From Glaucostegus cemiculus (taxonomy: Eukaryota), in contig CDPCPM010000073.1 in assembly GCA_976551045.1 (NCBI GenBank), positions 16,244,001 to 16,308,000 on the forward strand: a stretch of DNA of 64,000 bases. Direction: 5' to 3'. Shown piece after piece: positions 1 to 32,300 of the stretch. How positions within the stretch are numbered: position 1 is the stretch's first letter; each line of letters starts with the position of its first letter. The position numbers were made by a program, and so were the translations under genes. The notes below the pieces were generated by a model, which was not told the DNA's origin, made no database searches, and was given only the letters and a program-made list of their open reading frames with translations.

Positions 1-1209
1 TGCCAGGCGAAATTTGAAACCATGCCCCTGAATTACTAATCTAGTAACCTAATCACCACTCCACCAATTACATTTGGAGAGAAACACAGGGATAGGAGGA
101 GTTGCTAAATTTGGGAGAATTGTAAAGCTTGAGGAGGTTGGTTAGGAAGGACTGATAATGGAGAAATTTAAAAATAAGGTTAAGAATTATAAATTCAAGG
201 CATTGTTTAAGTGGGGGCCAGTGCACGTCAGCAAGCAAAGGGGTGTTAGCTGAGTGAGATTAGGTGCAAGTTAGGACACAGACAATAGGGTTGTGAATGA
301 TCTTGTTTATGTCACTAGGCAGCAATGTGTTGGAATAATCAGCTCTAGAGATAACAAAGCCATGAAGTAGAGGATGAGGGTTTCAGCAGACGTGGAAGGA
401 GGCTGTCTAAGTGATGTTTGAAACTCAGTTTAGGGTTATTATCAAATCAAAGTAGCTGTTAACTTGGTTCAGTGTCAGGAAATTGCCATGGATAGGAATG
501 GAGTTAGTCAGATAGGGAAGTAGTTTGTGATGGGAACAAAATTTGGTCTTCCGAACATTTAGCCGGAGGAAATTTCTGCTCACCCATTGCTGGAAAACAG
601 TCCGAAATCTCAGAGTCAGTAGAAGGCCAAAAGAGGCACTGGAAAGACAAAACCAGATATCATTGGCTCACATGTGGAAACTGATGGATATTCCCAGAGG
701 GGAGCATGAAGATAAGAAATAGGATGAGGATAGGATAACACCAGAGGTAAAATTTAAGGTGCACAGAGGGGGACCTTTCAGTGATACCCTGGCTACAAAA
801 TCCAAACTGTTAATGAAGTTGACAGGTATCAATGTTTGCAGTCTACATCCCTGAGGAAACTCGGGACCCATGTGGGCCTACTGATCACAATGCAAACAAG
901 TTTCTGTTCTCTGTAATATATAACCATCTCTGTCACACAAGAAAATCTGTCTTGATGGTCACTTACTGAAGCCTTTCTGGGTATCTGCATCTACTGCAAT
1001 GCCACTAAACATCAAAGAACTTAATCAGATTGATGAAGCCCAAACTGATACGGAAATTACCCAACCTCAAATAAATCCCCCAAATGAATACCAACCTCTC
1101 TTGTTGATCAGAAGTCACACTCCATGCTTTCCAGCCTCTTATATAATTTACATTAACCTAATAGGTTTACTGATTAGGATTAAATTTAGACTCCTTAAAT
1201 ACAATGGAT

Positions 1210-1373
1210 AATGCTGGGAAGTTTTGAGCATGTCAGGCAGCATCAATGGAAGCAGAAACCAAGTGAACATTTCAGCTCATGATCTTAGATCAGAATAGAT
1301 GAAAGGTTTTATAGTCTAGTTTAGAATATTGACCCAAAGTGAAAGTTTTGTTTCTCTGAATTATTTCCAGCAC
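1210..1373. repeat. Degraded palindromic Penelope-pLTR-like element
   Basis: gctgggaag..gtcaggcagcatcaatgga..aacatttcag and ..gtttctctg..tatttccagca resemble the two arms of the 19600 element. Confidence 0.45.
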
Positions 1374-8300: not shown

Positions 8301-11300
8301 AGGCATTTGATTTTGCCCAGGCAATAAAAACACTGATCAGGCAAGAAGAGGATCAGGCATCACCCAACAAAGGCTCAGATTGTTAACAAGTTGGAGCCTG
8401 CTTCAACTGCAAAAATTAAAGAACCATCTGAGGGGGAATTGGTATTGTGGTAATTGCAGTATTAGGCTAATGAATTCAGATACAGAGTCTGTTTGCCATA
8501 ATTCTGGTATCCAGGGGCATTTGTCAAAATTGATTGAAAGTAAAGCAAGAACATGACAAACTCAAGTAACTGAGTATCCCAAGTCTATTGGGAAGAATGG
8601 TAATAGGTATCAGATGTGTGAACTGGGTGAAGAAGATGGGGATCTAGATGGATCATAGAGACGACTCATGTTACCTCAAAAGATTACTGAATCTTTCTTT
8701 TTAATCACTACACATGGAAGAGAGTATTAACGGAAACTGGTGCAGTTGCTGCAGTACTTGTGATGTGTGAGGAGGAATTTAATCACCATTAGACAGATGG
8801 TACAAATGAAGCTCAAGGAATCATCTGCCTTTCCTTGAATTCACTCGAGGAAAAGATGCAAAGTGATAACAATGTGTGAAGTTAGAATGAGAACTGGTGG
8901 AAGCGAAGGAAAGCTTCTTCTGATTAATATTTCAGGGCAGGGATCCAAATTGATCAATTGAAACTGACTACCAAAGATGAGGCTAGATTTAGGAGGGATC
9001 AAGAGCATGAAGAAACTGTCTGCATAATCTGTACCTAAGTATTCCAAAGTGTTTGTGATGTAATTGGCAGCATTCAGTTTGTAGGAGGATGCTACACCTG
9101 GGTTCTTGAAACAACTTGGACCTGGAACTTAGTCTGAAGTAAAAGGTCTGCTGAAGAGTTGAAGAGACTACGGGAAAGAATCATTGAACTATTAGGATTT
9201 CTCCAGTCATTCCTCCAATAAAGATTGATGGGATTATTACAATCTGTGGAGATTATAGGATAATGATCAACAGAGCATAATGTGTGATTGGAACAGGTGT
9301 GAGTTAGGAGTGTGCAGCAAAGTTTTGCAATGACCTCAAGTTGACAGCATGCAGAACAGGAAGGCTGCCCTGGATTACACTGGAAATATGAAGACCAGAG
9401 CTGGTCAGGGCAGAGAGAAGGGTTTCACCAGCAGATTCCTGTCAGCATGCTTCAAAAATTGGAAATACTGGTCTTTTACACATAATTTACCTTATCCATA
9501 CAGTTCTTTGGCTCTGGCCCTAGCATTACTCATGAGCTAGTATGTCAGCTCCAGAGGCTGCTTGACCTACTCCGGCTTCTACTTTTACACTCCTATGATA
9601 GAAACGAATGGAATATTTTGTGATTGCTGAGGAATCTTTCCTGTATGTACAACAGGGTAGAACATGCAGCAAAAGGCAAAAATACAGCTTCAAGCATGGC
9701 CTTAAACTTAAGACTTACAATTGATTTTGACAATATTGTGCTAAGTTCCACAATAGCATTTCCAGCCCTAGTTGTGCACATGATTGGAAAGTTCACTGTG
9801 AAACCTCTCACTGTGATTTAGTCATCCCCACATAGCTATCATTGGCTGATACACTGCCCTCCCATGCCTTGTTACCTGATTGAATTAACTTTGATGTCAG
9901 TCAGGCTTCTCCTCCAATTGCCAATATCTTTACAATTAATTTTCAAACATTCATTTAGTATGATAAAAATACACCATATTTCTATATGAAGACCTTTTTG
10001 GAGATTGGTCTTCAATTTGCGAGTCTTAGGGAATATTCTGGAGTGCTGGCAAGCCTAGCCAATCGCTAACTGCACAGGAATCTGAGACCCATCACACTCA
10101 CTCAGTGTGATGGATTTGACCTAGATGTTGCAAGATGCCCTGTTGTTTCTCCTCTTATCAGCAATATTCAGCAGCCAGACCCCACAGCAACCCTGACTGA
10201 TAAAAACATTAGTGGCCTCAGTCACATACTAATGTTGCAATTGTTTGCTTAACAAAATGAACATAGAAGATAATCCTGTAACGTAACTGCAGCAAGAGCT
10301 TGAACAGCGTTTTTTCCTGGAACACAGGAGCAATTGATTTTATTCCTTTGAGCTCACTTACTGGGAAATATGCCACAAGATAAATTATGCAGAAGGTGAA
10401 CATGTGCAATCTGGGCTGTAACATCTGCAGTACGGGCGAAAGAAAAATCACTTAACAGGGGACGACTGCTTAAATTATTTAGTAAGAGTAAACAGAAAGG
10501 TGTAGATAGAATATAGCTTGTGATTTTTAAATCTGGTTTGCTTAGCAATCTTTTCTTCAACATATTTGACATCACTTTTACAGAAAATGCACAAAGCTTT
10601 GATGAAGGAAACTGGATAAAGCATCAACTGCCTGGATCAATTATCCATCAAAGTTTGCAATCAAGTTTCCAGTGAACTAAGTGCATCAGCAAAACTATTT
10701 CTCACATCTCCATTATATGTTGCCTCAGTGTCTGCTTTTTCTGAACTGAGTCTGTGCCAATTATCATGGGGCACATCCTGCAAATGTTACCTCTCATGTT
10801 CAGGAAGTATTGGAGGCAGCGAGTCCTTAACCCGGGCGTGAAGCAGTTGTCTGTTTTCATGAACTGTCCTTGGCCTTGCATCATCTTTCCTTCCTTCCAA
10901 GGACAACACATAGTCTTCCAGGTTCAGCTGACGAGCGACATTCAGAATTGTGCGATCCTAGAAGAAACACATTAAGGAAGTGCAGAACATTACTGGGAAA
11001 TGCACAGCTGCAGATTTGTAAACGTCAATGTCATTTGATTCAGGTACAATACAAGAAGTTGGGTGTTATTTTCATCGTTTCATAAGGCTGATGTGCAACC
11101 AACAACTACACATCTTTTTTAAGGTCACTTAATCCATCTAAAGTTCTTGACGAGAGGAAGTTAATTGTTGAAGGTCACTGTTCAATTTTTTATATAGAGG
11201 ACAGAGTGTTGTTATGTGGCTCACAGTTTGGTCAGAATCGTCACAGTAACATTTCTACCTAATATATCACTTGTGCATGACGTAACTACAGCAGCTGTGT

Positions 11301-14300
11301 CCAGTGTGAATTGGATTTAGCACCTTCTATATTTTGTGCACCAAGTTAAAACCAGGAGGCTTTGCTTTTGGATGTTACTCTGTCCAGTGGAGTGAAAGTG
11401 GCTGTCAGATCAGCAGCTGCAATTGACAGTCACGGTGGGGGGTTTGAAATGTGTTGGTTGGGGAGTCAGGTCAGATCCTGCAGCAGACTGACAGGTCAAG
11501 CGAGAGATGCAGGCTTGGGGATTGGTGGCGAGGGTGATTGTGGGTGCTGGACTTGGGAGAGTTGGGTGGGTGAGTTACCGAAAGGGAACTAACCCAAGTT
11601 GTTTTCAAAGCAGAGGCCTGGTACCTGCTGAGGGAGGGTGGTATTTAAGTCATGCAGAAATTCTGATTTTGGCTGGCCTGTGGACAGTGTGGGCTATTCA
11701 TATGTAACTGAAAGACAGAGAAGTGCAGTCTAGGTCTGTGTTACATATCATGAACACTATTACATTACCCAGAGAACTCTTAGAGTCACCCTAACTCAAA
11801 AATCACAGACTTCTTAAAATATATCCTAAGTTCCCACTTTTCAATAACATTTTATTCTTCATAGAAATTGGATCAGGAAGCACACAAAACTACAGTGACT
11901 CCATTTCTAAGCATCAATCTTTCAGACAACATCAGAAGTGATTAAACTTGGTCTTGGTGTGTTTAGTGGCTTTATCCCACAGTAAGGATAAAAATGCACA
12001 GAGCAACAACACTATGCCAGAAATAAAAACAAACAGCCCCGGAAATACTCAGCAGGTGAGGCTGCATGTGTGGGAAAAGAAACAAGGTCAACCTTTCAGG
12101 TTGAAGACCCTTCGTCAGAAGTGCAGAAGAAGAGAAAAAAAGAAGGTGGGGTGGGAGGGGTGTCTCTGATAGGGTTAAACCAGGGTGATCATGGGAATGA
12201 ACTGTAAACAAGATTATCTGGTCAATGAATGAATTTCTGTTTTAATTTTAGATTTCTAGCATCTGTTTCTTTTTAATTTTTCATTTACCAGAAATCTTCA
12301 GCTCAACTGGTACAGCAAAGACGAGATATTTTTATTATATGACACTAATAGCATAAAAAAGACCAAAGTGGCTTCACAACAAATGCAGTCTACCAAAACT
12401 TAAAGTCAAGCTTAATGGATGCCATAATGGGTGACTAAAATTTAGTCCAAAAAAGTGGACAGAGAGCCACTGGAAGGGAATTCCCAGAACTTAAGGCCCC
12501 GACAGCTGAAGCCATGTTGCCAATAACGGGAGTGAAGGGTTTGGGAGTGCATAAGAGATCAAATGTGCAAAATTGCAGAGCTCTAGGGTTGTTCATAGGA
12601 CTGGAGAATGTTCCGGTGAAGGAGAGCCACAAAGATATTCAAACACATTGATGACATTTACCGATTTTGAGGCAGCAAGATATGGGAGACAATGCATCAT
12701 GGCAGATGGGTGCATAGAACTTGGCATTGGGTTGGAACAAATCTATGAGTTTTAGGTGAGGGAAAGATTATATTGTGTGATGATGGGAGCACATGCAGAA
12801 AGCCTAGGAAATGTTGGATTTGATGAGGCAGCAATGTTTAGGCTTAGGCAGTTTGAAGACAAGAATCGCTATGGATTTAGAAGTTGACTTTGTGACCGAG
12901 AGGTTATGGGGTTGAAAATTTCTCCTTGTGTAATCACACCACAGAAGGATTACACCACACTAATGAATCACGTTATTTGACTAAGACAGAAAAGAGACCA
13001 GTATCTTTTCCCTGAGGAATCCTGCATGAGTTTGCTGCACAACAACATTTTTACTTTGTGTGCTTAATAAAGAGCCTGGAATTATAAAATAACTAAAAGA
13101 ATGACAATTGATAAATATAAAATGAGCATTTTAGAGCCAGATAGGTTGTTAAGCAGTAGTAATAATTTAGGTAGGTTGTTACAATCTCAGAAATACCACA
13201 TTACTTGAGATGGGATATTTTCAATGCCTTTTATAGCAGGAATAGTTTGTAAATAGATGTTCTCATCAGATCACTGATAATACTACAATAAAACTGCAAT
13301 ATCTCCACCTATGGAGGAGCAGGGAAACACTGGCAGCTGTCTCTGGATTTCTTGATTTAGCCTGTACATTGCTACAGAAGTTGCCATTAGATTTGCTCCA
13401 TTGTATCATGACTACTCAGAGCCCCAGTGTTATTGTCAGTGCAAGTTATGTTCTATTGTTTTTTTAATGACCAACATTAAAATTAGATCATTTCTAAATT
13501 TCTTCTGGACAAATGGAGACAAAATGCAATGATGTTAATCTTCCAGTCACATTTATCCTCCATGGTGCTGCTTTTAGGGACCAGAATTACCCCATGAATT
13601 CCACACCATGGAGAACAACAGGTCTTTGCAGCAGCTTTCTTGGCGGTTGTGTTTCCTTTTGGGTGCTGAGAGAGCAAGAAATGAGCAAGTCTGCTCTACT
13701 CTGAATCAAATGCATATATAAAACTGCACTGATTATTATTTTCAGCATTATATAAACAAATTCTTCAGCCGCTATATTAATGTTATTGTTGTGATTATTG
13801 TAAATCTGTCCCATGAAGCTGTGGTTGCCATACCAGTTATATAATCATGCTATCGGTACAATTGATAATTTATTACTTGGAAATCCTATTAGTTTCAATC
13901 ACAGTGGGGTAAATGGTCAAGTACAGAATGATACAAATAAATCCGTCAGCTCTGTTACCCTCAGCGTGTTGGAGGTGATGGTATGAAGGGTGATCAGATT
14001 ATCTAGCATCCCCTCCTCTGTCTCTTGCCTATAGGTGGTGTAGAGATTCTGTAGTTGCTGTGGAACTTCAATGTTGTGATCTAGGGGGGAAAAGAAGAAG
14101 CATCAGTAGCTGTGTATAGCTGTCAAGCCACAAGTAAGCTCTTAGAATCTGAACTTCGCTGAAAACCTGATTCAGATTTATTCCACTGTAAGGATCCCAG
14201 GGCATCACTTCTGTGAGGCAGTTGTAATATTATGAACTGGTAAAACTCCTTCAAGAAAACAAAAGGTAGTTGTCTAAGTAAATGAAGCTGTTGCCATGGT

Positions 14301-17300
14301 CTTTGTTGTTTACGTTTTAATTTAATTTTTAAAATTTTTATTTACAGCGTGGTAACAGGCCCTTTCGGTCCAACAAGTCCGCGCCGCCCATTTTAAACTC
14401 CCAAATTAACCTACCCGTACGTCTTTCAGAATGTGGGAGGAAACTGGAGCACCCGGAGGAAACCCACGCAGACATGGGAGAACGTACAAACTCCTTACAG
14501 TCAGTGACGGGAATCGAACCCCGATCGCTGGCGCTGTAACAGTGTCGCGCTAACCGCTACGCTATCATGCCGCCCTGTTCTCCTGATCAATCATAGTGAT
14601 AGAGATTTTGAGATGGTAAAGTTTAAACCAGGGCACCATATACAGTTCTCACATCATCACAACATAAAGACCAAAATCTTTGCCCATCAAATGCAATGAA
14701 CAGACTGAATGAACCATAACTCATCCAACATAGGTGGCCATCAAATACATTCAGTATTTTACTTCCTGTTAAACCTATCTATTACCATTCACCAGTTCTT
14801 TATCTGATATGACCTGAACAATACATTCACCCTCAGGTTTATCAGTGCCAATGAGTTTCCATTTTTCTGCGCCAAACCACATAGGAGCAAAAGAGAGTCT
14901 AGAAACTGCAATGGATCCTGTTGGGTGTGCAGATGGTTGTAACAGCAGCATGCTGATAACTATTTCCATATCGGTTTGTTTTTTAAGCTTCAGTGGTGTC
15001 CAAGACCAAACCTCTCAGGGTGTCAGGGGAGAAGGGGCCATTGGTCACGTGTGATCAGGGCCTGGGGTCACATGACAAGCAAGAGAAGTAGGAAAACAGG
15101 AGGAGGAGGTGTAGGTGAAGAAGATCAGGATTAAGGTCTCTGTCATGGGCCTTGGTCAACTGTGGTGCAGTGGGTCTTTGTCAATTAGAACTGGGGATAT
15201 ACAAGAAAGGGAGAAATCAGAGAAAAATGAAGGGTGGCAGAAGAGATTTGAGCATTTGTGGAGATCAATAGGTTTTGGTGAGATTGGAGGGTATTGAAGG
15301 ATCAGTGGGATTGAAAAGTGGAGGGCATAGAGGTGCTGTGACAGAGCCAAGTTTTGCTCTTCCCTCTATTGATGGTCCAGTGATGCAGTCAGTGGAGCTG
15401 CTGCCTTACAGGGTCTACTGTCCCAGGTTCAATTCTGACCTCTGGTGCTGTCTGTGTGGAGTTTGCACATTCTCCCCATGATCATACAAGTTTCCTTTAG
15501 GTGCTCTGAGTTCCTCCCATATCCCAAAGACCTGTGGGTTGGTAAATTGGTGGTAGACACTGCAAATTTGCCCTGGTGTGCAAATATATGGTAGAATCTG
15601 GGGGGAGTTGATGGGAATGTAGGGAGAATAAAATGGGATTAACGTAGGATGTGTAGATGGATGCTTAGTGGTCAGTGCAGACCCATGGGCCAAAGGCTGT
15701 TTCCATGACTTCAGTTGTGTTGGGAGTTCACAAGAGGTATCAGAATCACAATCAGCCATTGGCGGTGGTTCGGGGACACCTTCACACTGCAGTCCGGGGG
15801 TGATGGGGCCAAAAGATACCACTATACATATGGATTCTCTGCATATAAGCATGTTATACGCTTGGAGGACTTAGAACCAATTCGGCATCCCACGAGAACT
15901 GTAGAGATATTCCTTGATTTATAAATATTTGCCATAACATTATTGACTCTTTAAGAAACGTCTCCTCAACTTACAAATCTATTTCTCATGATAACAAATA
16001 GCTTGCCACTCTCCACCCACAGAAGCTCATTGCCCCAAAATAACCATAACAGATTTGGCACAGCCTTTAGTAACAATGAAATTTTGCTCACCAAAGCATT
16101 TCCAAGAAAGCACCCTTTTGTAACGCAAAGAAAACCCCGTCCAACATTATGGTTGGCAGTGATGTTTTTAAATTCCTTCACACAGCACATAAAAACACTG
16201 CTGTGGCAAAGAATTTCCAAGCCTGTGACTTCACTCGAGGAAATTGCTTTACTGTGTTTACTCTATCATATCCTTTATCCTATTAAGCACCTCAATTAAA
16301 TCATCCCCCTACTTTCAAGGGAGATGAGCAATTTGTCCTCAATGTTTTTGCTTTTTTTCTGCCATTTGTCATCTACTGCTCCACCTTTGCAAAGTAAAAT
16401 ACTTGCTGTTATATTTTTGATTACTGACTTTTATTGGCTCTGGCTACTAATATAACATGTCCTAAATGACTGTCAAACCTCGGTCATAAAAGACTGAGTT
16501 AATGTCTTTGGCACAGTTTTAGACAAAGGAATTTCATTTGAGCGTGTTAAGCCTCTGTCCTGTAAACCAACAGCACAGCTTAACTCAATATGCAACATAC
16601 TGTCCCTGGGCCCCTATTTTAAAGCTATTAATATCTAAAAGTTTCCCATTAACTTAATGCCTCTATTAGAAATGAAAAAATTTTAAAGAAGCAGCTATTA
16701 TTTCAGTTTGTTAAAATTCTTTAAATTGTAAATATGATACTGATGGTGAGGTTTCATGCATCAAGATCTCCTTAATTACTGTGGGCAAACTTTAGGTTTT
16801 GAATTGGGTACCTCCTCCCTGATGCCAATGTTGAACTGGGCCTTACTGTCAATGTAAAATGGCAGCAGCTCCATTCTTTTTCCCCAATCCCCCAACCCAT
16901 AATCTACTCCTTCTTTACATTTTCCTTCCACAGCTCCTTGCTCTAACCTTACCATCAGCTAATTATGGTTGAAAATCAAATTTATAAACAATTAATGATT
17001 AAGTACTTAAAATAATGCATGAACTAATGTGTACATAGAGAACATAGAACATAGATACCTACAGCACAATTCAGGCCCTCGGCCCACAAAGCTGTGCCAA
17101 ACACGTCCCCACACTATTAGGCTTACCCATAGCCTTCTATCTTATTTACCTCCATGTACCTATCCAACGTATGTGTAGCAGTAATGCACATACAACTTAT
17201 TTCAACTCCATCAGTGTGAAAATGGTGCCACTCTGTGGGATAATTAATGAGCCTAGGTTAGGGTGGATCTTTTCAACAAATAATGTTTCCTGCTGCACTT

Positions 17301-20300
17301 AATTATCAGTGGAGGAATTATAGCATCGAGGTAGTGACCCTCTTTGACTCTGTGCCTACCAGATAAACAACACTGGGCATGAACCTTGCAAACACAGCCT
17401 TTTGTCTTCATTGGCTAGTTCCTGAATCTAACACTTCTACAGGGACATATCTGTAAAAACAGTGCATGAGTTGGAAAGCACTGACCATCCTTGGCTTTGA
17501 AGGGAAGGCAGAATAAGCAGCACAGAATGCATACATGAAGATATCTGTCCAGCAGCAATTCTCTTCACTTCCTTTCTGATTTCTTTACTGATTTTTTTGC
17601 AATGTTTTTTCAACCACCAAGTGCCCTGCAACAACTCATGCAAACCCATGAACTCCACCACCAACACAGATGAGGGCAGCAGGCATAAGGAAACACCACC
17701 ACCTATAAATTCTCCTCTAAGTCAAGGACCATCGGGATCTGAAAATCTATCGCCATTCCTTCATGTCACTGGGTCAAAATCCCAGGACCCCGTACCCAAC
17801 AGCACTCTGGCAGGACCTCAGCAGTTCAAGAAGGTTGCTGCCCACCACCGTCTCATGGGTAATTAGGGAAAGCCATTCAAATGCTGGTCTTCCAGTGACT
17901 CCCATATCTCATGTAGGAAGAGGAAAAGCTCCCATATTGTAACAGTGTGTTAACATTTTCTTTCCAATTTCAAGTAATAGGATTCTTGAATTATTTAAGT
18001 TGTTAAATACTCAGAAATGAAGTGTTACTGCCCAGAAATCTTGCCTCTGAGTCAGAACTTATATTTAAAGACTTGACACAGAAGTTACTCTAACTGTATG
18101 AATGAATTGATTTATTTATTTCCTGATATAATTATATTCTTACCACCAGCCAGCCAACTTCAACTTGGCCAACACTACTTTGCCGAGCAGCTGTGCTCCA
18201 TCTGCCATGGTCTCTGGAGCTCCAAGTTGCAAGCCATTTGAACTCCCCTGCCCATTCCCACATAGATGTGTCTGTCCTCAGCCTCCTCCAGTCGGGTGAG
18301 GCCAAATGCAAACTAGAGGAACAGCACCTCATATTCCACCTGGGTAGCCTACAACCCAACGGCATGAAAACTGAATTCCCCAATTTCAGGTAACCTGCTC
18401 CCCCTCTGGCCCTTTCTCTCTCCTCCTGGTCTAGCCAGTTCCTCCTGAACACACCCAACCACTGCCACCCCTAGGCCCCTATTACTCATTTTCTCTCCCC
18501 TTTTCCACCCGCTCCATCTGCCCATCAACACCACACACTCCTCCCAACAGGTCCCCTCCCCCTACTGTTCCCACCTGCCCACCCCACCTTCCTTTATTTG
18601 CTTCCATGCTCCACTTTCCTTTCCTATCAGATTCCATTATATGCCGCCCTTTGTTGCCTCCATCTATCACCTCCCAGCCTCTTGTCACTCTCTTCACCCT
18701 TCGCTCCTCCATCTGTCAATCACCCCTCCTCACCTGGATCCACCTATCATCTATCACGTTTTGCCCCACCCCTTCCTCTCACTTCATTATACTGGCTATA
18801 CCACCACCGCTTCCTCCCCCCACCGCTGCAACTTTCAGTCCAGATGAAGGGTCTTGACCCGAAACATCACCTGTCCATTTCCCTCCATAGATGCTGCCTG
18901 ATCCACTGAGTTCCTCCAGCAGTTTGTTTTTGTTTTGCTCAAGATTCCAGCATGTGCAGTGGTCTATCATGTCTCTGTGGTATTAACCCACTGGGTTTGA
19001 TAATTTGCTGTCCCTTTGGCACCAGATGCTCCTGAAAGTTACGGTGACAGGCCACTGACTGAAGCAAACATGCAGAATGCAATGGCTGTCCAGCACATCC
19101 ATTTAGGTAAAGAGAATTCCTAACCAGGTACTTTTAAAATTTCTGCTGTTGGACCAAGAGGAGCAGGAACAGCTGTCTGAACCCAACTAAAATGATCTGG
19201 GTCACTTTCCCACTGCAGTCTCCCTCTATGCCATAATCGCAACAAACCCTGAAGGCTAGATAGCCCACTTTTTAACTCTAGTCTGCTAAAACTTAATGCT
19301 CTCTCAATATACTTAAAGGAAAATGACTGCTACGCAGGAAAAAGCCCATTCAGAAAGATTATTCCCTCTCATCCCCTTCTCTGGGAAATAAAGCTCAAAC
19401 TTTAAAAGAAAATATAATTGACTTTATAATTTGCATATAGAAGGACACGTCTCACATGTTCTTCACTTATTCAACATTGGCTTTTATTTTCTCTTTTTCT
19501 CATCTGCCCATCCAAAAAATGGTTTTGCTGAGGAAATAAATGTAATTCTTTCATCCTGAATGACATGTTCAATAGTAATAAGCCTTAATTTATAACAAGT
19601 ACAGAAAATGTTGGAGATATTCAGCAGATCAGACAATACGTGTGAAGACACAGAGATAAAGTTTCAGATCAATGACCCTTCAAGACCTCCGATGAAGGGT
19701 CACTGACTTGAACTGTTAACTCTGTTTCTCTTTCCAGAGATGCTGCCCAAGCTGCTGAGTGTCTCCAACATTTTCAGCTTTTATTTTGGATTTCCAGCAT
19801 CTGCAGTTTTTTGCTTTTAACTTATAAGCACTTGCTTTTATATGATGCCCTTCATTTGGTGAAATGGCCCATGGTGCTACACAGGAGCATTATCAGATCA
19901 GACAGAATTTCTTGCCAAGCCTCTAAGAAAATCTTAGGCCATAGCACCAAAACACTTGGTCAAAGAATGGATTCTTAGGTATGCTCCACAGGAGAAGTGA
20001 TAGCAACAACATCAACACATTTAGAGAGAAAATATACTGGGGCCTTGACAACTGAAAACTGGCTGCCAATAGCAGAATGATGGCATTGGGATTAACCTGA
20101 CTGAAAGGAGATGGATAAACACATAATGATTTCACATTATTATTTTCTTTCCTAAAAGCTGAATCTTAACCACTGCAAACAATGGATAGCTAATATATTG
20201 CCCAATAATATTCTTCCACATTCTCACCTCTGGAAATTTTTAATCACCAAACAAGTAAGGATATCAAAAGTAAGATATTTACGAGTGTGTACTTTAATTA

Positions 20301-23300
20301 ACACAGTTGTCTCTTGAATTTCGCACAGGAGATTTAAACATTATTATAAAATCACACCAAGGATTTAAGAACTGCAGCTGTGGGACACAATTTCACAAGC
20401 AAGGACCTTAAGAAGTATAATTAGAGCCAATTAGGATTTATCAAATATACACACTCGGAACAGCAATGGGCAAGGCAGTGTCAAGATTACCAACACCAAA
20501 TGATGGATTCCTTAACTAGGAAGTCTTACATTTACACTTTGCTTCTTGAAACCTCAGGATATCCCAGAGAACTTTACGGCTAATTAAGTAATTTTGAAGG
20601 TAGTCACTGTTGTAAAGTAGCAAACAGGACAGCCAAGGTGTCCATATCAAGTCCCCACAATGTGATAATAAATAGCTATTAAGGCTGATTGAGCAAAAAA
20701 AACTTGCTAGCACATTAGGCTGAAATCCTGGCTCTACTTCAAAATAGTACCAAAGGATCCATATATCCACCTGAGTCTTAGTTTAACATTTTCTCTAAAA
20801 GACAGTGCTATACTCCCTTGGTATTTAACTGGAGTGCCTGCCTAGGTAGTGTGCTCAACTGGGACAAAAACACATAACTTAAAAGCGACAGTGCCAATTA
20901 CTGAACCACAGCTGGCATCTTTAGGAAAGTTTAAACAAAAATTTAAGAGAAGCAAATAGTGATTATGTAGAATGTTCAAGGGATGTCAGCTTACAGCAAA
21001 AATTTCAATGCTTTCTTTAATGTAACATTATCACTAAATAACTCAAGAAAATACAAAACTCTGTGCAGACTTTCAGATGGCTGCAGCAACATACAGTAAC
21101 AGAAGGGTAATAATGAGGGTCACAGACTCACCCTGCAAGCTGTTTTTTCCAGAGCTGATCTCAATCCAGCAGTGGCTAGCCCAATTACAATGAATTAGGA
21201 AAAGGGAAACAATCTGAGCATGATTTGCAGTGTGAATGCCATTAATACTTGTTTCAGAATATGAGCTTAACAAAGAAGCGAACAAGTGTTGGTGCATTCA
21301 CAAGGCACCGATTCATAAATTATCAGGGCATAGAATGGACCACTGTTGCAAGTAGATTAATCAGGAAGTCATAAAATTAATGGGCAGGATCACACTCATT
21401 ATGGCTCACACCTTGCACTTTCACCCCTGCACCCTGAGTGGGATCCATGGCTACACCATGGATAGGCCGCACTGGTGGCCTACACAGCACTGGCTACGAG
21501 TGGTGCCCAGGGCTCAGGTGGTAAAACCTGAAGGCTTGCCCTCAGCACTGCCCTGACAGCTTTAGATAAATCACTACCATCAAAAGAATCTTTCACTGTC
21601 TACAATATTAGGAGACATATAAAACAGTTGAAATGGATTAAAATAAGAAAACAAAATACTTAGAAAAAGATAATAAATGTGGTTAAAATACATTGCACAA
21701 CTGCTGATAATTATAAACATACATTTACAGAGAAGTAAACAAGAGTAAAGAAAGCCCAGGGATACCATTCAATCAAATGGAGTTGCTGCTTGTCCACAAG
21801 CCAGGGCTGGCATGGAGGTGAGTGTCAAGCATCAGGGAGCAGATGGGCAGTGGTTCCTATAGAATGGCTACTAAAATCAAGTGTTATGTGCCCGATATCC
21901 TGCAGATCTGCCTTGTAATGTGGGATATCATCAGACCTATTAACATTGCATTTCATAACTGTGGTGTTCTGACTGGGTAATTAGGACTTATAATTGTAAC
22001 CTTTTTGCACAGAATTTACAGGCACCATGTGCTGTGAACCAAGCTATTTTCTGCAGGAATATATAATCAAAGCAGTTCCCAGAGGGCAATGTAGTGCCGC
22101 ATAGGATAGAAAATTGAAGCAACTGCTCAGTACACTGAAGTGATTTATACTGCAAGGTTTCTTTTTTTTTCCCTGCAAATAAATATGTATCAAGGAAGAC
22201 AAGATACTAGATTTAGAAAAAGATTGTCTGGCCAAAGAACCACTTAATATATTACATACGTATAAATAATTCTTATGGGTAACACACTTTAAGGAAGTAT
22301 ATGGTACAATTTTCCAAAAATATGATAGCCTACAAATTAGATTGCACAACGCTGTTTACTTCACTGCTACATGATTGAAAATGTACTGGCCATGGAGTGA
22401 AGTGGGATAACAACCACCTCCTGGTTATTTTGAATTACTGGAAATTCAACCAGGAATTTCCTTTTATGAGTTACACTTGCACATCCAACACTCACTAAGT
22501 TACATAATGCTCCTTCCGAAGAATCTTATGGAAGATTAGATACATTATCCAAAGGATAACCAATGTCAGGTACTTCCAGAGCAACTAGGACTTCAGAGCA
22601 CCTTAGTGAGATCCCAGTAGTGCAAGTCCTTACTTAGTTTTTATCCTTTGGGTATCACCATATCCTCAGCCCTACAATACTGACCTTCCCACGCCTACCC
22701 CACATCACAGCAGCTCCACAATAACTCCAGGCGCACTCTCTCTCTCTGTCTCCCAAACAGTGTGAAGCACCCTGTAGGAGGAAAAGGGAAAGCAACACAT
22801 GCTGGGAGAAAATGATTTCATATCAGTTTGCAATGTCTGGTTTTGTATAATGCCTTGATATTGACCGATTTGGTCCTTCTCACTGAGATCTCAGTTCTCC
22901 TTTGTACTGAGGCCAATCAATTGAATTAGTTTTGCTTTTGGTCTTATTTTTAATCTTATAGCTGACCTGGTATCAAAATCAGAAATTATCCTCTTTGAAA
23001 CTAGAATATTTTTGAGGTGATAATCATTTCTGAACTTCAGCAGGGATATGTCTGCTCAATGCCTCTTCTAAAATTGATATGTACCTTTTTGATATCTTAA
23101 CAGCCAAATTTGGTGGTAAAAGTTGGTGCTGACTGCTTCTCTGTCCCTGATAAATTCACTTCTATTCTTGGCATTCAATGTATTTGAACTATAAACTGAC
23201 CTTCATAGCACCAAAGAACCCACACATATCATAGCCATTCACAAATTGGTGGGCTTTTGCACTCCTTCCACACAACATTGTGGCCAAGTTTGGAGACAAT

Positions 23301-26300
23301 ACAAGGATAGGTGGAAGGACAGGTGCTGTCATGGAAGCAAGAGGTTTGCAGAAGGACTCGGACGTGTTGGGAGAATAGGCAAAGAAGTGGCATATGGAGT
23401 ACAGGGAAGGGAAGTGTGGGAGTTATGCACTTTGGTAGGAAGAGTAAAGGTGTACACTATATTCTAAATAGGGAGAGAATTCAGAAATTGAAGGTGCACA
23501 AGGACTTGGGAGCATTGAAGGTGCACAAGGACTTGGGAGCATTGAAGGTGCACAAGGACTTGGGAGCCATAGCTCAGTATTCTTTTAAGGTTAACGTGCA
23601 GGTTGAACTGGTAGTAAGGGAGGCAAATGCAATGTTAGCATTCATTTCAAGAGGACTAGAAATCAAAAACAAGGATGTACTACTGAGGCTTGGTAGGGCA
23701 TTGGTCAGGCTGCATTTGGAACACTGTGAGCAATTTTGGGCCCTGTATCTAAGGAAAGATATGCTGGCAGTGGAGAGGGTCCAGAGGAGGTTCACAAGAA
23801 TGATCCCAGGAATAAAAGGCTTAATGTATGAGGATCATTTGACGTCCCTGGGTCTGTACTCGATGGAGTTCTCATTGAAACCTACTGAATACTGAAAGGC
23901 CTGGATAAAGTGGACGTGGAGAGGATGTTTCCATTGGTAGGAGAGTCTAGGATCCAAGGGCACAGCCAGAGAATAAAGGGACGTTCCTTTAAAACTGAGC
24001 TGAGGAGAATTTTTTTTCGGCCAGAGGATGGTGAATCTGTGGAATTCATTGCCACAAAGGGCCGTGGAGGTTCAGTCACTGGGTGTATTTAAGACAGAGA
24101 TTGATAGGCTCTTGATTGGTAAAAGGGTTAAGGGTTAAGGGTTACAGGGAGAAGGCAGGAGAATGTGGGTTGAAAAAATATCCTCCGTGATTGAATGGCA
24201 GACAGATGCAATGGGCCCGATGACCTAATTCTGCTCCTATATCCTGTGGTCTTAGGGGCTAGCATCTGTTTTTTACTGTCATAGACTCACAGAGAGATAC
24301 AGCATGGAAACAGGCCCCGAGACTCACCAAGTCTACGCTGATCATTAACCATTAATCCTACGTTAATCCCATATTTTTATTCTCCCACATTCTCATTACC
24401 TCCCCCCAGATTCTACCACTCGCCTTCATACTAGGGGCTATTTACTATGGCCAGCTATCCCACTAACCAAGTCTACCAACCTGGGTAAATGGTTTAACTG
24501 TTGGACTGCAGCTTTCAGTCACCCATAGTGCTGTTGCTTTTCACTTGAGGTATGGTGGAACTTCCTATCTGGGAACACATTAAATCTGCAGTTAACTACC
24601 TCCTAGATCTCCTGGTCATTCTCATTAAACCAGTCCTGGTTCTTCTTGATAGAAAAGCCACAAGTCTCCTCACAGGTGCTAATTCAGGGCAGTCCATAGA
24701 CTACAGAACTCTGTGGCTCCTGTTGGCTAAAAACTGACAAGTTGTTTGTGAGGTGCTGCCCGAGAAGATCTGCCTTTGACATTCTTGTAACAACATTTTT
24801 CAGTTGACACTGGTGTTTTGGAGCCAGGCTAGTGAAGATGACAGAGAGGATTGCGCAATGATCAGTCTAGCTGTCATCAGAATCCATCGTGGTATGGGTA
24901 ATGCTGACATTCTTGGTTGATAATCTAACAGGAGTCAGTGCCTGGACTGGGCACCTTGCCATGATGCCCCGTGCTTGTCTCTTTGATGAAACAGTGCACA
25001 GAATATTTTCACAAATCCACAATTGCCTTATTCACATCTGGAAGAGGGAGGTGTGCCAGAGGTCCTCATGGTGACCATAAGGATTGACAGTCTTTCAGAA
25101 ACCAATCCAACTGCAGTAACTACAGAAGGGTAGTTCTAGTATCTAACACGGGGAAAGTCATCTCCAGGGTTCTTCTCAACAACCTCCTCACTGTGGCCAT
25201 GTGTATCATCTCCACCCCAGGACCAAGATCATCCCAACCGCAGTTGAGAAGCTGCGGTACACAGAAAAATTTCACATTTTACCATGGTCAGAAACCAAAC
25301 TCCTCCAAGTCATCAATAACTTATTCAGTGAAGCATACAAGAGGATGAACCTTACACTCAACATCCACAAGACAAAGGTTGTCTATCAACCTGCCCAACT
25401 CTATAACACCACCCTATGGCATTAAAGGTTCACGATGAGATCAGAGCAATTCCCACAGCTCAGGAGCAGACACTGATGATGAAACCTACCATCCCCTTAA
25501 GTGCACTAGCACAGCCTTTGGCTGACTGTGGAAAAGAGTGCTTGAAGATCAAGAACCTCAAATCCAGCACAAAGTTCAGGGTCTACCTACAGCAGACACT
25601 TCAAGCCACTGAAAGGATACCACCAATGCTGCCTGTGCAAAATCTTACAAATCCACTGGAAGGATAAGCATTAACGTTCTCTCTCAGGCCAACCTCCCTA
25701 TCATTGAGGCCCCATCACACTTAATCAGTTCCATTCGAGAGGCCACGTAATTAGCATGCCTGACACTCCCCAAAACAGAGTTTATTCCAAGCTCTGTCAC
25801 GGGAAGAAATTACCAGGCAGATACAGGAAAATATTCAGGTCTCCATGAAAAAAAATCACAACCCCACCAACTCCTGGTAATCCCTAGCCCCATCACCACT
25901 CAAAGAGAAGTAGGAACATTAGAAATGGCACGAGGAAATCCATGCATCAGCAGTACATAGAAATCCAGTGTAAACAGCGGAAGGAGTGCACTACCTCATA
26001 AAATACCTACCCGTCGGGCACCTCCTGCGGCAGACGTCTGTGGTTTACAACTTGGCATAATCAGTCACACAAAACTAGGGGGAAGAAAGTCATCCTCAGT
26101 CCGAAGGGATACGCAAGAAAATTTGGGAACAGTGAACCTCCAGAGAAATACAGTAGTCCAAGAATATAAGGCATTAAAAGTCAATGAGTACACACAAAAA
26201 AATTGAAAAGGTTAATGGAATGTTGACCTTTACTGAAAGGGAGCTAGAATATGTAAGTGGTGGAAGCTATTTTACAGTTCTGGTTTGGTCTTGTTTTGAG

Positions 26301-29300
26301 AACTTCATCAGCCCTGGGTTCTTAACTTTGGGAAAAATATTAAGGTTCATCTAATCAGGGCAGTCAGGGTGACGTGGCTATGTAAAATGAGCCGGAATGG
26401 ATTCAGTTCTGCAATCATCCACTGCAGCTCCTGTGAGCTGGACATAATGATTAATATGCCTCATATTCTATCCATTATTCTAACTGATCTGTTACCATAC
26501 CATTTATCAGCTGTTGCTGCTGCTGTATAATCTCACTGCAGAGCGATCGATGTTGTTCATAGCGCTGCACAACAAAGTCTTTTTGTTGTAGGAGATTCTC
26601 TTTCCTCAGCAGAGCTGACTGGATCTCTGTATTCTCCACCTCCAGCTCGTGAACTTTACAGAGCAAACTCATGATCTCTTGCTGCTCCTTATTACTGATG
26701 CACTTTGGTAGCAAGTCCTCCATCTTTGAAACTTTAGCCTTGATTTCCTCCAACTTCTGTTCTAACTCACACTAAGAAACAGAGCAAACAAAGACATTTA
26801 TTGGCTTGGCTTTTCACTGTGAAACATACTTTCTGTCCAAATGAAATAATTAGAACTATATATGAATAATTGATTGCCAATGAACTGATTGTTCAACCCA
26901 TAGGTTTATTTCTGGATGTCCCATCAACATCACCATGTGAAGTACTTTCAACAACTAAGTTGGGCAACTTTTCAGTACTTTAGTCTCTGATCCCAGTGGA
27001 GTAAACCTTCTTCGCCTTTACTTCTGCGATGGTGACTGGGCAGAGCAGATTGCCCATCCACTGAAGAACCCATTGAGCCAAGGTGTTAGAAGGTTGTTGT
27101 TCTAAGCTGCACTCCTGAGACTTGAGCACATCCTCTTCACTGGATCTCTGCTGCACTGCCGTAGGTTTTGTTTTTCAAAGATATTAAACAAAGGCCCCAT
27201 ACACCTAGCCAGTAAAACAAAATATCCCATGCCACCAGTCAAAGAAGACCAGGATAATTCTCCCAATGTCTTTGCTCACTCAACATTTAGAAAAGTAGAA
27301 ATGAGCAAAGTATGCTGTATTTAAACATGTTCTGGTGTGATTTTTCACTATAGTTAGAAAATAGAGGACAATATAGCCCTAAGACACTTTGTATTTCCTA
27401 ATGCTAAATGTTTATCATTGTCTTCAGCCTAATGATATTTTGATAAAGGGGCAATATTCTGGTGCTTCTTTCAGCTCCTTTCATTACAGTTATTGTCAAC
27501 TTTTCCAAATGGAAACATTTATTTACCTTCTAGGGTTGGGATGCTCCTGACTTAACAGATCCTGTTCCATAAGATCTGCCGCTATACTCTTTAATGACCT
27601 TCTCACCGTCAGTGAAACAAATGGCACTGTACCCATTGTGGTTACATTACTGGAATGGCAATCCAGAGGCCTGGACTAATCATCTGGAGACATGAGTACA
27701 AATCATGCATAGCAGGTGGGGAATTTAAATTCTGTTTTTAAATAAATGAGGAATAAAAATCAGGGATCAATAATGGCCAGCATGAAGCTCTGGCCTTAAG
27801 AGCTCGTCTGAAAGCCAGTCATCCTTGCCTGTCATCTGGTCTAAATGTGACTGCAGACCCACAGCAATGTGCTTGACCAACACTCTAATGTGGTCGTCCT
27901 CACAGAATCATACTTTACATCTAACATCCTGGACACATTCATGAACATTTATACCTATGTCCGGTTACCCAACAGGACAGAAACACCAACCATGATGGGA
28001 TTTTGGCAAAGAGTTGGCAAGGAGCTATGGCAGTTCTCAACACTCGACTTTGCATCTCATAAAATTTCATACCACCTCACAGGTCATGAGCAAGGAAACC
28101 TCTGGCTAATTACCATCTATTAACAAAGCTCATTTGGTGAATCAATTCCCCTCCATGTTGAATATCAGTCAGAAAAGGCAACACCGGCGTAAGAGACACA
28201 GATTGTACTTTGACGGGAGACTTCAACATCCATCAGAAGCACACCTACTAACTGAACTAGCCAAGTACTGAAGGTCTTGCAGCCAGACGGGGCCTAGGAC
28301 AAATGGTGAGAGAACCAGTACAAATGGAAAAAATGTATCATTGTCTACACTAACCCTATCTCTCAAAGATACAATTGTCTATAACAGGGGAAGAAGGAGA
28401 GCACAATTCTGTCGGAAGCTACATTCTACCTTCATACGGATGACACCCTCTAACATGTTGTACACCACCTCCACTTTATCAGCTGAGGTGGATTCAGAAC
28501 AGATTGACCTGGGGATCTATTGCAGGCAATCAGAATCAGCAAAATTACATTCCTCAACAACAGTGGAGGCACAGTGGTGGAGAGAATAGAGGAGCTGCCT
28601 CATAGCTTCAGTAAGCCGGGTTCAGTCCTGACCTCCATTGTTGTCTGTACGAGAAACACGATGATGCTGGAAGAACTCAGCAGGCCAGGCAGCATCCATG
28701 GAGGAAGTCAACGTTTTGGGTCAGGACCCTTCTTTAGGACTGCAGATAGGAAAAGGGGAAGACCAGGGAGGGTACAAGGTGGTGATAGGTAGATGCAGGT
28801 AAAGAGATAATGATAGGCAGGTGGGGGGGGGAGGAGGGGAGAGCAGATCCACTGGAGGATGGGTCAAAGGAAGGAGAGAGAGGAAAATAAAGGTAGAAAA
28901 ACAAGAGGCTAGAAAAGGGAAGAAGATAAGAAGCATGGTGGGTGGGGGGAGGGGGGGTTTTGGGGAAGTGGGGTGGGGATTACCTAAAATGGGATAATTC
29001 AATGTTCATGCCGTTAGGCTGCATGCTTCCAAGACGGAAAATGAAGGGCTGTTCCTCCGGTTTGCACTTGGAATTCTGCTGGCAGTGGAGGAGGCCGAGG
29101 ACTGTCATATCAGTGACAGTGTGGGAGGGGGAGTTGAAATGACTGGCGACGGGGAGTTACCATCTGCATCCCGTTTGCAGTCACTTCATCACCTTGTGCC
29201 CACCCTGCCTCCCCTCTTTTGTCCACTTATCACTGCTCTGCTTTTCCCTCCTAGATATTGGGCTTCCCATCTTCAGTCCTGAAGAAGGGTCCTGACCCAA

Positions 29301-32300
29301 AACGTTGACCGCAGCTTTTCTCCACAGATGCTGCCTGGCCTGCTGAGTTCCTCCAGCATCATCGTGTTTTTCATCTAGATTCGGGCATCTGCAGTCCTTT
29401 GTTTCTCTAGCTGCCTGCATGAAGTTTGCTTGTTCTCCCTGTGACCTCATGGGTTGCCTCTGGATGCTCTGACTTCCTTCCGCGCTCCAAAGACATGCAG
29501 CAGGTTGGTAGTTGGCCACTGTCAGTTGCCGCTAGCGTGTGGGTGAGTGGTAGAATCTGGGAGGAGTTGATGGGAATGTGAAGGGAATACCACGTGAGCA
29601 ACGTAAATGGGTGCTTAATGATCAGCACTGACTCAGTGTGTCGAAGAGCCAGGTTCTGTGCTGTGTGACTCCAAGTGAAGGAGTGCATGGACCACAGACA
29701 CTGATTCCAGGCAGCACGATCTAGTCCATTGTGTTTTGCAAACCTGGAATTTAATATCTTGTGCATGTTTTAATCACCATTCTGCCACATAGAATTCCCT
29801 TGTGCTTTGCTGTAATTCAGCACATTTAAACTGTGCGGTTAAAAGTTACTCCCATCATCCACCATTGCAGGTGGTTCCCCAGATATTTCCCTCTTCACCT
29901 TGAGTGCTGCAGTCCTTCGTTGCTCAGTTAGCAGCATGCCGATTTCCTCCCGCGCCACGGTAACCTCCAGCGGTTCAGTCACATCCGGCTCATCCGCTAG
30001 TCTGGCTTCCCACTCCTCCCCGTCATGTTCCTTGTCAGGTCTCCCACTCCATTTCTCTTCCCACCATTTTCCAGAACGGTTTGCTTTCTCCCTTTCCCAG
30101 CTAAAGAAAGCACAAAATTGATTAGCTTCTATAGGTATTCCTTGATTTACCTAGAATGTGTCTCAGTGATTATAATGTTGTTAATCAAAAAGGCTGGGCA
30201 GAATGCTTTATGGGCATCTTGGTACAATATATTCCTGTGGACAGAGAGTGGGACACTATTTGTTTTAGTGAAAAATAAACGTATAAATTAAAGACACAAG
30301 CTCCAAGAATCAATGACATTTTAGTGAAAATTTGTAAATCACACATTTGTAAGTTGCGGATTACTTGTATTGAAATAAATTACCTGTGAAAGCAGGTCAC
30401 CTTTAGCCAACCATGGCCTGGGAATTCAGTCATGCAGAAAACAATTTTTTAACCTCCTAAATGATTGAATTGTAATACAAATGTGATTGGACCTTTTGGT
30501 GAGAACAATCAATAATCACACACTCCCATGCACAGAATGTGTGCAAAAACAAACTGTGTGGAGCACACAGTGCTGACATCAATCCAAGTCATGCCTACAC
30601 TGCGAAACTAATTCACGTATCTTCCTTAGTGTGAGCCATGCAGGGGTAGGCAGGTCTGATGAACCCTGCACCTGTACACTTCCAATAACTTGCAGGTTTG
30701 CTAGTGATTAAATAGGAGGAGGGCTCATTGCATTATAAAGAGCTGAGGGCCAGAGTTACAGGTCCTAGTGTGAGTTTGGCTGAGTGCTGTGTTTGGCTTT
30801 TCTTGCTGCAAACTTGGAACCTTTATCAGGGGTTCCACTGAAATTCCAGTCTGATCAGAAACTGGAGGTGAAGGAGCAAAGGGAAAGTTGCCTTTACAGA
30901 AATGGCTGAAGGGGGAGAGGCAGAAGGCTGTAGCCTGGGGGCAGGGAAGAGGAAGGGGTAGTGAACAGGGCCACATCTTTACCCCCATCTGTCTGAGGTT
31001 TGGTAAGTCACTAATGAAAGGGATTAATAACCTCCTACACGCAGACATCAAAATGTTCACCCGTGCCTTTAGAGATGAAGGTACCTGACACCTTGAATTT
31101 CACATTCCAGATGGCTGGAGCACAATTTGCAGTCACGGATGCTCCCCATTCACGAACAGGGGAATTTACAAACAGTACGCTGGAACAGAGGGACATGAGA
31201 GTATGTGTGCACTAATCCTTGAAAATGGAAGGACATATTGTAAAAAGCATAGGGAACCTGGTGCTCATAAATAGAAGTATAGAGAACAAAAGCAGGGAAG
31301 TTAGGTATGGAGTATTGCTTTCAACTTTGGTTGCCAGTAAGGATGTAAAGATCCAAGAGACATTACAGTAAAGATTTACTAGAAAGGTTCTAGAGGTCAG
31401 GGACTAAAGCTACAAGGAAAGCCTAGGGAGGTTGGGATTGTTGTCCTTGCAATAATGAAAGTTGAGAGAAGGCTTAATAGAGGTGTACAAAAGGTAAAGA
31501 AGAGATGGGGCTGCTTGTGATGGTTTAAGGATTAGGGAACATAAATTAAACATTTTCGGCACAAGACACATGGAGCACATGAGGAAAAGCTCTTGCTCAG
31601 ACAGCAGTCATGATCTGGCCTTCACTCTCTGCGGGCACCCATGTGAAACTTCTGAATTTTCATTCTAATCCAATACTAACGTGATCCTTGCAGTGTGCAC
31701 TGTTTTTCAGCTGAATCACTCCACAAAGGGAATCCTCACAGAGACATGGTTCCTATGCTGGCATTCCTCTGTTACTGCTCATCTCAGTATCACCTCTTGC
31801 ACAGAAACAAGCAAGTCAGAAAAAAACAAACAAACAATGTTGAACATTGTCAAACCACCAATCATCCAAAGCCACTCAATCGTTGATGAAACATCCAAAT
31901 GCATCTCTTCAGTGCCTCCCTTTCATGTGCCTCTGTCTGCCCTATCATTTCATCCCTGTGTTTTCTCCACAGAGGAAAGGTATTTCTCTGGAGCTGAGTC
32001 CATAAAGGCAGAAACAAGTAACTCTGGGTACATGCTGACCAGCTTCAGCATGCACCACGGACAGTAACGAGCTGGGCAATGACAGTCTGGCAACAGCAAG
32101 GGCAGTATTCGGAGTACATAAATACTGTCTCCCTGAGAAAGGGTGCTGCCTTTGTACTCCACAGAGGCAAGGGCAGGCATGATTTGACCAAGCAATCTGC
32201 TGTCGGGCAGATCGCTCTCCTTTGAACACTAGAGTCAAGAATTGTGATTATAGCAGTCTGAACTATCATGGCAACTGTCAAAGTTTCCAATGCACAACTC

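Follow-up and report, generated by a model that had tools for sequence, protein, structure and literature searches.

Minimal hammerhead ribozymes (min-HHRs) have been described in the pseudo-long terminal repeats (pLTRs) of Penelope-like elements (PLEs), with the consensus CUGANGAH-stem II-GAAAN-palindrome-NUH (PMC4209133 supplement). They are reported from the fish elements Xena, Poseidon and Neptune, with ~4,000 motifs in the coelacanth and ~9,000 in Xenopus tropicalis (PMC4209133, Cervera and de la Pena 2014). For a min-HHR from Schistosoma, no cleavage was seen with the monomer and weak cleavage with the dimer (PMC4209133). In the anole element PAc, reverse transcription starts at two sites downstream of the uncut ribozyme, and core mutants still insert in vitro (PMC11167929). 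A survey of retrozymes, which are related hammerhead elements, includes one chondrichthyan (bioRxiv 10.64898/2026.07.22.740005). We compared these systems to a recurrent motif in a 64,000-nucleotide stretch of the ray Glaucostegus cemiculus (GCA_976551045.1, contig CDPCPM010000073.1, positions 16,244,001 to 16,308,000; the window), which lies within the gene KIF19. With a probability of about 0.85, the motif is a minimal type I hammerhead located in the pLTR of an abundant shark and ray PLE that encodes a reverse transcriptase (RT) and a GIY-YIG region, and its copies in KIF19 introns are broken, likely neutral and likely not cutting host RNA.

An exact intact-core pattern of 30 places has 893 + 921 (1,814) matches in the 2.85-Gb genome, and the reversed pattern has 0 + 0. 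The CUGANGA core with its extra base, GAAA and NUH are present in these 1,814 matches and in 187 exact matches of a second subfamily. Since intact natural copies exist in the genome, it is unnecessary to reconstruct a consensus from damaged ones. We built a pLTR profile from 50 intact-core loci and searched 664 kb not chosen by the motif, composed of the window, 400 kb adjacent to it and 200 kb from four other contigs. This yielded 104 pLTR matches, compared with 0 in the same DNA reversed, and a single one of the 104 (~1%) has a fully intact core. The density of ~157 matches per Mb gives, by rough extrapolation from 664 kb, ~450,000 pLTR fragments genome-wide, and it is likely that the ray genome holds hundreds of thousands of copies. 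In the unselected copies, ACGU is the majority state of the loop-less palindromic stem III (15.2-16.2), where changes are CpG transitions, and the rest of the core besides position 9 is in its majority state as well.

The motif is found at the end of a coding element. One locus (L141) contains a 525-amino acid open reading frame (ORF) with RT and then GIY-YIG regions, and the relatives of this ORF are proteins of whale, bamboo and zebra sharks, stingray, devil ray and skate, which carry PF00078 and in some cases also PF01541. Together with the 1,814 exact cores, this bears out the high-copy elasmobranch family postulated in a first-pass annotation of the window. The frames of two other loci (L143 and L149) have a CX4CxxC linker ahead of the endonuclease; a CX2-5CxxC linker is given as a mark of Neptune and Nematis elements (PMC8557442). 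Judged by domain order and linker, the carrier would thus be a Neptune-type PLE. A same-strand pLTR is located ~1 kb downstream in 24/30 loci picked by RT similarity (one of the 30 being the query's own locus), and the motif lies 166-451 nt after the ORF stop in 61/68 ORF-end rows, some loci being counted twice. This placement and the fit to the PMC4209133 consensus agree with the Penelope pLTR origin and the minimal type I anatomy that had been annotated. On the 5' side, the longest shared homology gives out ~1 kb ahead of the early RT motifs, short of any upstream pLTR.

The profile detects seven pLTR pieces in the window, all within KIF19 introns and none of them intact (0/7). These pieces and the ORF remnants that accompany them are:

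1199..1294, minus strand: strongly decayed extra pLTR/hammerhead copy (nhmmer E=5e-10).
12085..12123, minus strand: decayed hammerhead motif of the 3-nt-loop subfamily with C15.2>G, stem I and stem II mismatches and 2 stem I pairs left; sense to KIF19.
18220..18393, plus strand: last codons of the PLE ORF together with its stop, 59% identical to the L141 ORF (E=9e-21).
18836..18873, plus strand: hammerhead motif of the older 2-nt-loop subfamily with U4>A, G16.2>A and a broken stem I; antisense to KIF19.
19594..19697, minus strand: truncated pLTR half without CUGA box, its inverted partner joined to it inside the ribozyme.
19681..19816, plus strand: decayed pLTR half of the 3-nt-loop subfamily with U4>C and a broken GAAAC; inverted partner of 19594..19697.
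28650..29408: single 5'-truncated PLE insertion with inverted pLTR (fold-back), ends approximate.
28705..28742, minus strand: hammerhead motif of the youngest subfamily with G5>A and G12>A; sense to KIF19.
28983..29156, minus strand: last 58 codons of the PLE ORF, where the GIY-YIG region ends, 76% identical to the L141 RT and endonuclease ORF (E=1e-30).
29274..29311, plus strand: hammerhead motif of the youngest subfamily with G12>A (CpG decay) and a GUU triplet; antisense to KIF19, inverted pLTR arm of the 28650-29408 fold-back.

The stop codon at 28980-28982 (minus strand) is positioned 246 nt upstream of the 28705-28742 hammerhead, and the ORF end at 18220..18393 lies 451 nt upstream of its own, in an element that extends to ~18960. 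The first-pass annotation had reported at least five copies, each damaged, and all five places indeed hold the motif at the spans above, with its both-strand copy at ~19655-19722 consisting of two joined inverted halves, 19594-19697 (minus strand) and 19681-19787 (plus strand). The four lesions it named are correct (U4>A at 18836; G5>A and G12>A at 28705; G12>A at 29274; C15.2>G at 12085), but most copies carry more, and the 1199-1294 copy had been missed. We rejected a further candidate at 62179 (plus strand) as a chance match of 11 nt. A search for target-site duplications of the window insertions returned short, doubtful matches only.

The ribozyme occurs in several subfamilies. Subfamily A has a 2-nt loop and a G10.1-C11.1 pair. 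Its youngest branch carries GUU in 66/66 copies, and the 3' side GACCG leaves a 3-bp stem I with an A-C mismatch at pair 4. An older branch has a 5-bp stem I, seen in 4/30 intact-core loci (L014, L018, L029, L030). Stem II of the 2-nt-loop forms, previously drawn with 5 bp, folds as 4 bp and a tetraloop in ViennaRNA. Subfamily B has a 3-nt loop and accounts for the 187 exact genome matches mentioned above; the 12085 and 19681 window copies belong here. Among the 100 matches listed, its pair 10.1-11.1 is G-U in 71, A-U in 22, G-C in 5 and A-C in 2, and its pair 2.1-1.1, which the search pattern left free, is U-A in 13/20 loci. Subfamily C is defined by a base other than A at position 9 (410 matches; C 76, G 21 and T 3 among the 100 listed). 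C is also found at this position in 15/62 unselected copies (about a quarter), which is too frequent, and the wrong type of change, to be explained by decay. The single consensus proposed earlier blends subfamilies, its 5-bp stem I being that of the older branch. Loop II is often UUCG or UUUG in the position-9 C loci L161-L185. Five intact GUC copies (L006-L010), in which the second pair of stem I is a G-A mismatch, have their flanks in common and probably spread by segmental duplication.

We next assessed base pairing in 65 loci, which remain of 75 aligned ones once 10 near-duplicates from the youngest branch are set aside. Here, 82.9% of stem cells are paired. Pair 2.1-1.1 is CG in 39 and UA in 13 loci, a compensation from C-G to U-A in stem I, and pair 10.1-11.1 is GC in 46, GU in 15 and AU in 3. 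There are 30 double-change cells versus 16.7 in shuffled alignments, with 0/500 shuffles as high. The genome-wide consensus thus contains CTGAnGA and GAAAC and shows compensatory changes in its stems, the features on which the first-pass annotation had staked its proposal. The six bases around the cut stay roughly self-complementary (GUCGAC, GUUAAC, GUUGAC with wobble), and positions 17, 1.1 and 2.1 covary.

Several observations speak against an active hammerhead in a PLE. The number of pairs with a double change (4) is not above that in shuffles (4.7); the covariation counts come from some four related subfamilies with few independent events, and are inflated by kinship; and stem II columns were partly fixed by the search patterns. 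In 9/9 natural copies, a double hammerhead is less favoured than a mispaired rod or a full duplex by nearest-neighbour energies, models that ignore hammerhead core contacts, and the monomer folds no better than shuffles (z -1.6 to +0.2). There is no Rfam hammerhead match in the window (E<=5) or in five intact-core loci (E<=10), and the L141 ORF has weak Pfam matches (RVT_1 E=0.011, GIY-YIG E=0.099). A full-length tandem pLTR-ORF-pLTR with two direct pLTRs was not found among the best candidates of 15 extended RT loci and 30 N-terminal loci. Finally, three RNA runs show no pile-up of read ends at the predicted cut, which is a weak test in fragmented libraries. As hammerhead cores are short, the missing Rfam match and the unexceptional folds could be taken to indicate a chance look-alike in a repeat end. 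We consider this extremely improbable: the motif matches the PLE min-HHR consensus exactly, down to the palindrome and the additional base that follows A9, it lies at the place expected within a PLE, and it has compensatory pairs.

We then asked how the copies relate to their host gene. KIF19 is encoded on the minus strand and spans the window; its exons run from past 57 kb down to less than 1.8 kb, and its best matches are batoid proteins. Exons located by tblastn of batoid KIF19 proteins include:

10793..10957, minus strand: KIF19 exon.
13959..14081, minus strand: KIF19 exon.
26502..26771, minus strand: KIF19 exon.
29887..30120, minus strand: KIF19 exon, next to the intron that contains the copies at 28.7 and 29.3 kb.

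The intron status of the copies in KIF19 rests on this protein alignment. Minus-strand copies are thus sense to KIF19, as annotated earlier, and it had been suggested from this orientation that intact sense copies are selected against. By pairing with another copy in their transcript, such copies would cut host pre-mRNA, and selection would purge them. At the pLTR density found here, long pre-mRNAs hold several same-strand copies; RNA of the PLE family is abundant on both strands, and tandem retrozymes are reported to be under-represented in Xenopus introns (bioRxiv 10.64898/2026.07.22.740005). However, with an intact core in 1/104 sampled copies, two intact partners per transcript would be rare. 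In addition, single min-HHRs are reported not to cleave and dimers to do so weakly (PMC4209133), and a same-strand partner within 560 nt is present in 1/100 young copies. The pLTR pieces within KIF19 comprise 7 sense and 5 antisense, none intact (p=0.77), some of them being halves of one insertion.

The decay of inserted copies bears on the same question. Young copies were chosen by a 35-nt tail pattern outside the ribozyme (4,068 matches), of which the first 100 listed (L216-L315) were analysed; decay was counted in the 66/100 that span the ribozyme without gaps. CpG-site cells are changed in 80/264 cases, and non-CpG core cells in 25/660 versus 37/660 for weakly constrained cells (p=0.15). 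Five of the 66 copies are intact, and 4.4 would be expected under independent site decay. This count is sensitive to the sample: 90 loci gave 0 strict of 59, and the other 10 loci held 4 intact. We therefore rejected a deficit of intact copies as an artefact of the 90-locus subset, all 100 loci giving the neutral figure. The window copies look to decay neutrally, driven by CpG sites. The decay tests pool orientations or are small, such that a modest orientation-specific loss would go undetected. Together, the intact count and the KIF19 orientations leave selection against intact sense copies without support, and we regard host-cutting selection as very unlikely; there is no sign of a consequence for KIF19 itself.

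The ends of the young copies provide information on the RNA that was inserted. Their 3' ends lie past the predicted cut, 36/100 at +64..71, 37/100 at +96..106 and 27/100 elsewhere. The 5' start is upstream of the predicted cut in 93/100; a cleavage footprint in DNA, with copies starting at the cut, was discarded (0/100 exact, 4/100 within 2 nt). An inverted partner accompanies 26/100 copies. The two 3' ends and the inverted partners are the PLE tail pattern. Fixed 3' ends beyond the cut and the absence of starts at the cut indicate that uncut RNA is the likely template. Three raw RNA runs contain thousands of family reads from both strands, mostly 85-95% alike, the species possibly being different.

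We propose that in an active master element the two ribozymes of a tandem transcript would pair through the ACGU palindrome. The paired ribozymes would cut slowly after GUU or GUC, trimming the precursor RNA, and the RNA that is reverse-transcribed would mostly still be uncut, as in the anole element. A lone inserted copy would have no partner and would then be inactivated by its two or three CpGs. Because ACGU has no loop, it needs a second copy to pair with, and lone inserts are predicted to stay uncut. By analogy with the described elements, slow dimer cleavage for the master and none for lone inserts is likely.

The read-through insertions could also mean that the motif is a hammerhead descendant for which cutting is no longer needed and which is either retained or just carried along as a structural piece of the pLTR, be it to bind a protein or to act as promoter or splice signal, with at least one subfamily having spread with a changed core. 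The abundance of C at position 9 would fit this notion, as would GUU in all copies of the youngest subfamily together with its 3-bp stem I, the insertion of anole core mutants in vitro (see above) and the proliferation of HHR-less Naiads (PMC8557442). On the other hand, the rest of the core and ACGU are the majority state while the stems change with compensation, published min-HHRs often have GUU and a stem I of 2-3 bp (PMC4209133 supplement), and the position-9 C is also readable as an insertion before A9. Loss of the need to cut thus appears to us an unlikely alternative to the slowly cleaving dimer, if one of some substance. We found no description of position-9 hammerhead variants in the literature searched, including section 8 of PMC3088659. 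Tentatively, the spread of the roughly quarter-size position-9 C subfamily may reflect a core variant that works in dimers, or cleavage that is dispensable in vivo, and the 5' edge of the ribozyme might also be a transcription start or a splice acceptor. If true, a start or splice site at this edge would link the ribozyme of a vertebrate PLE to its promoter and intron.

Several sequence features bear on this possibility. The PLE stop is embedded in a donor-like NN|GTAA(T/C) at 18388-18396 (plus strand) and 28977-28985 (minus strand), and a G precedes TAA in 52/68 ORF-end rows. Stem I starts at a pyrimidine tract and CAG, which is acceptor-like and, with the donor-like stop, outlines a possible pLTR intron. 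No joint from ORF stop to stem I was found among the best 15 of 84 joints in the three RNA runs, possibly from other species, and one contig set. A spliceosomal intron in this place is a candidate from its sequence signals and is unproven. In the youngest branch, TATATA is located 31 nt before the A of TCAGTCC, at the first base of the ribozyme; we take TATATA to be a TATA-like box and TCAGTCC to be initiator-like. The 5' ends of 10/100 young copies cluster at -34..-29, within 5 nt of the TATATA/TCAGTCC site, a grouping made post hoc. A second cluster lies inside stem II at -19..-17 (9/100), several of its members being inversion junctions. Drosophila Penelope has an intron whose end lies at helix I (PMC4209133).

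The window contains other repeats. A broken LTR-type retroelement at 35005-37684 has direct repeats at 35005-35290 and 37344-37618 that are 85% alike, and RT, RNase H-like and weak integrase pieces on the minus strand. A fragment resembling the RT of long interspersed elements (3133-4042, minus strand; RVT_1 and ALKBH8_N matches) is located in a KIF19 intron. A young dispersed repeat of ~250 nt has copies up to 91% alike at 14318-14575, 45229-45447, 49532-49701 and 55236-55493, and a second repeat has two copies, 78-87% alike, at 23380-24202 and 44863-46023.

The motif class is already known, its occurrence in PLEs of fish, coelacanth and Xenopus having been described (PMC4209133), and is not novel as such; our results add sharks and rays, where its copy number is very high. 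We found no description of this shark and ray family in the literature searched, most subscription journals and Repbase being outside its scope. The shark and ray form escapes Rfam, and its graded subfamilies (GUC or GUU, 3- or 5-bp stem I, G-C, G-U or A-U closing pair, position-9 C) offer natural material on whether PLE hammerheads must cut. As in the PLE min-HHRs of PMC4209133, we find CUGANGA with one extra base, G10.1-C11.1, GAAA, a loop-less palindromic C-G at 15.2-16.2 and NUH, as well as a short stem I, the pLTR location, mostly solitary copies and opposite-strand pairs 100-700 bp apart. Unlike these, the ray motif has a shark/ray host (none appears in the text or supplement file 2 of PMC4209133); its stem II is shorter (4-5 bp), pair 10.1-11.1 is G-U or A-U in some subfamilies, and position 9 can be a C, which departs from the consensus. 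The carrier resembles Neptune-clade PLEs with endonuclease (PMC8557442) in its one ORF with RT, Cys-rich CX4CxxC linker and C-terminal GIY-YIG, and in having the HHR near the 3' end, inverted pLTRs and a tail. With the anole Poseidon element PAc it shares two 3' ends ~35 nt apart downstream of the HHR, insertions that pass through the cut and no RNA-seq ends reported at the cut; PAc differs in belonging to the Poseidon clade and in having an HHR whose cleavage in vitro has been demonstrated (PMC11167929). Vertebrate non-LTR retrozymes likewise carry a type I HHR derived from PLE pLTRs (bioRxiv 10.64898/2026.07.22.740005), but they are non-coding tandem arrays, whereas the ray copies are scattered, truncated ends that derive from a coding element; 1/100 of these copies has a direct neighbour within 560 nt.

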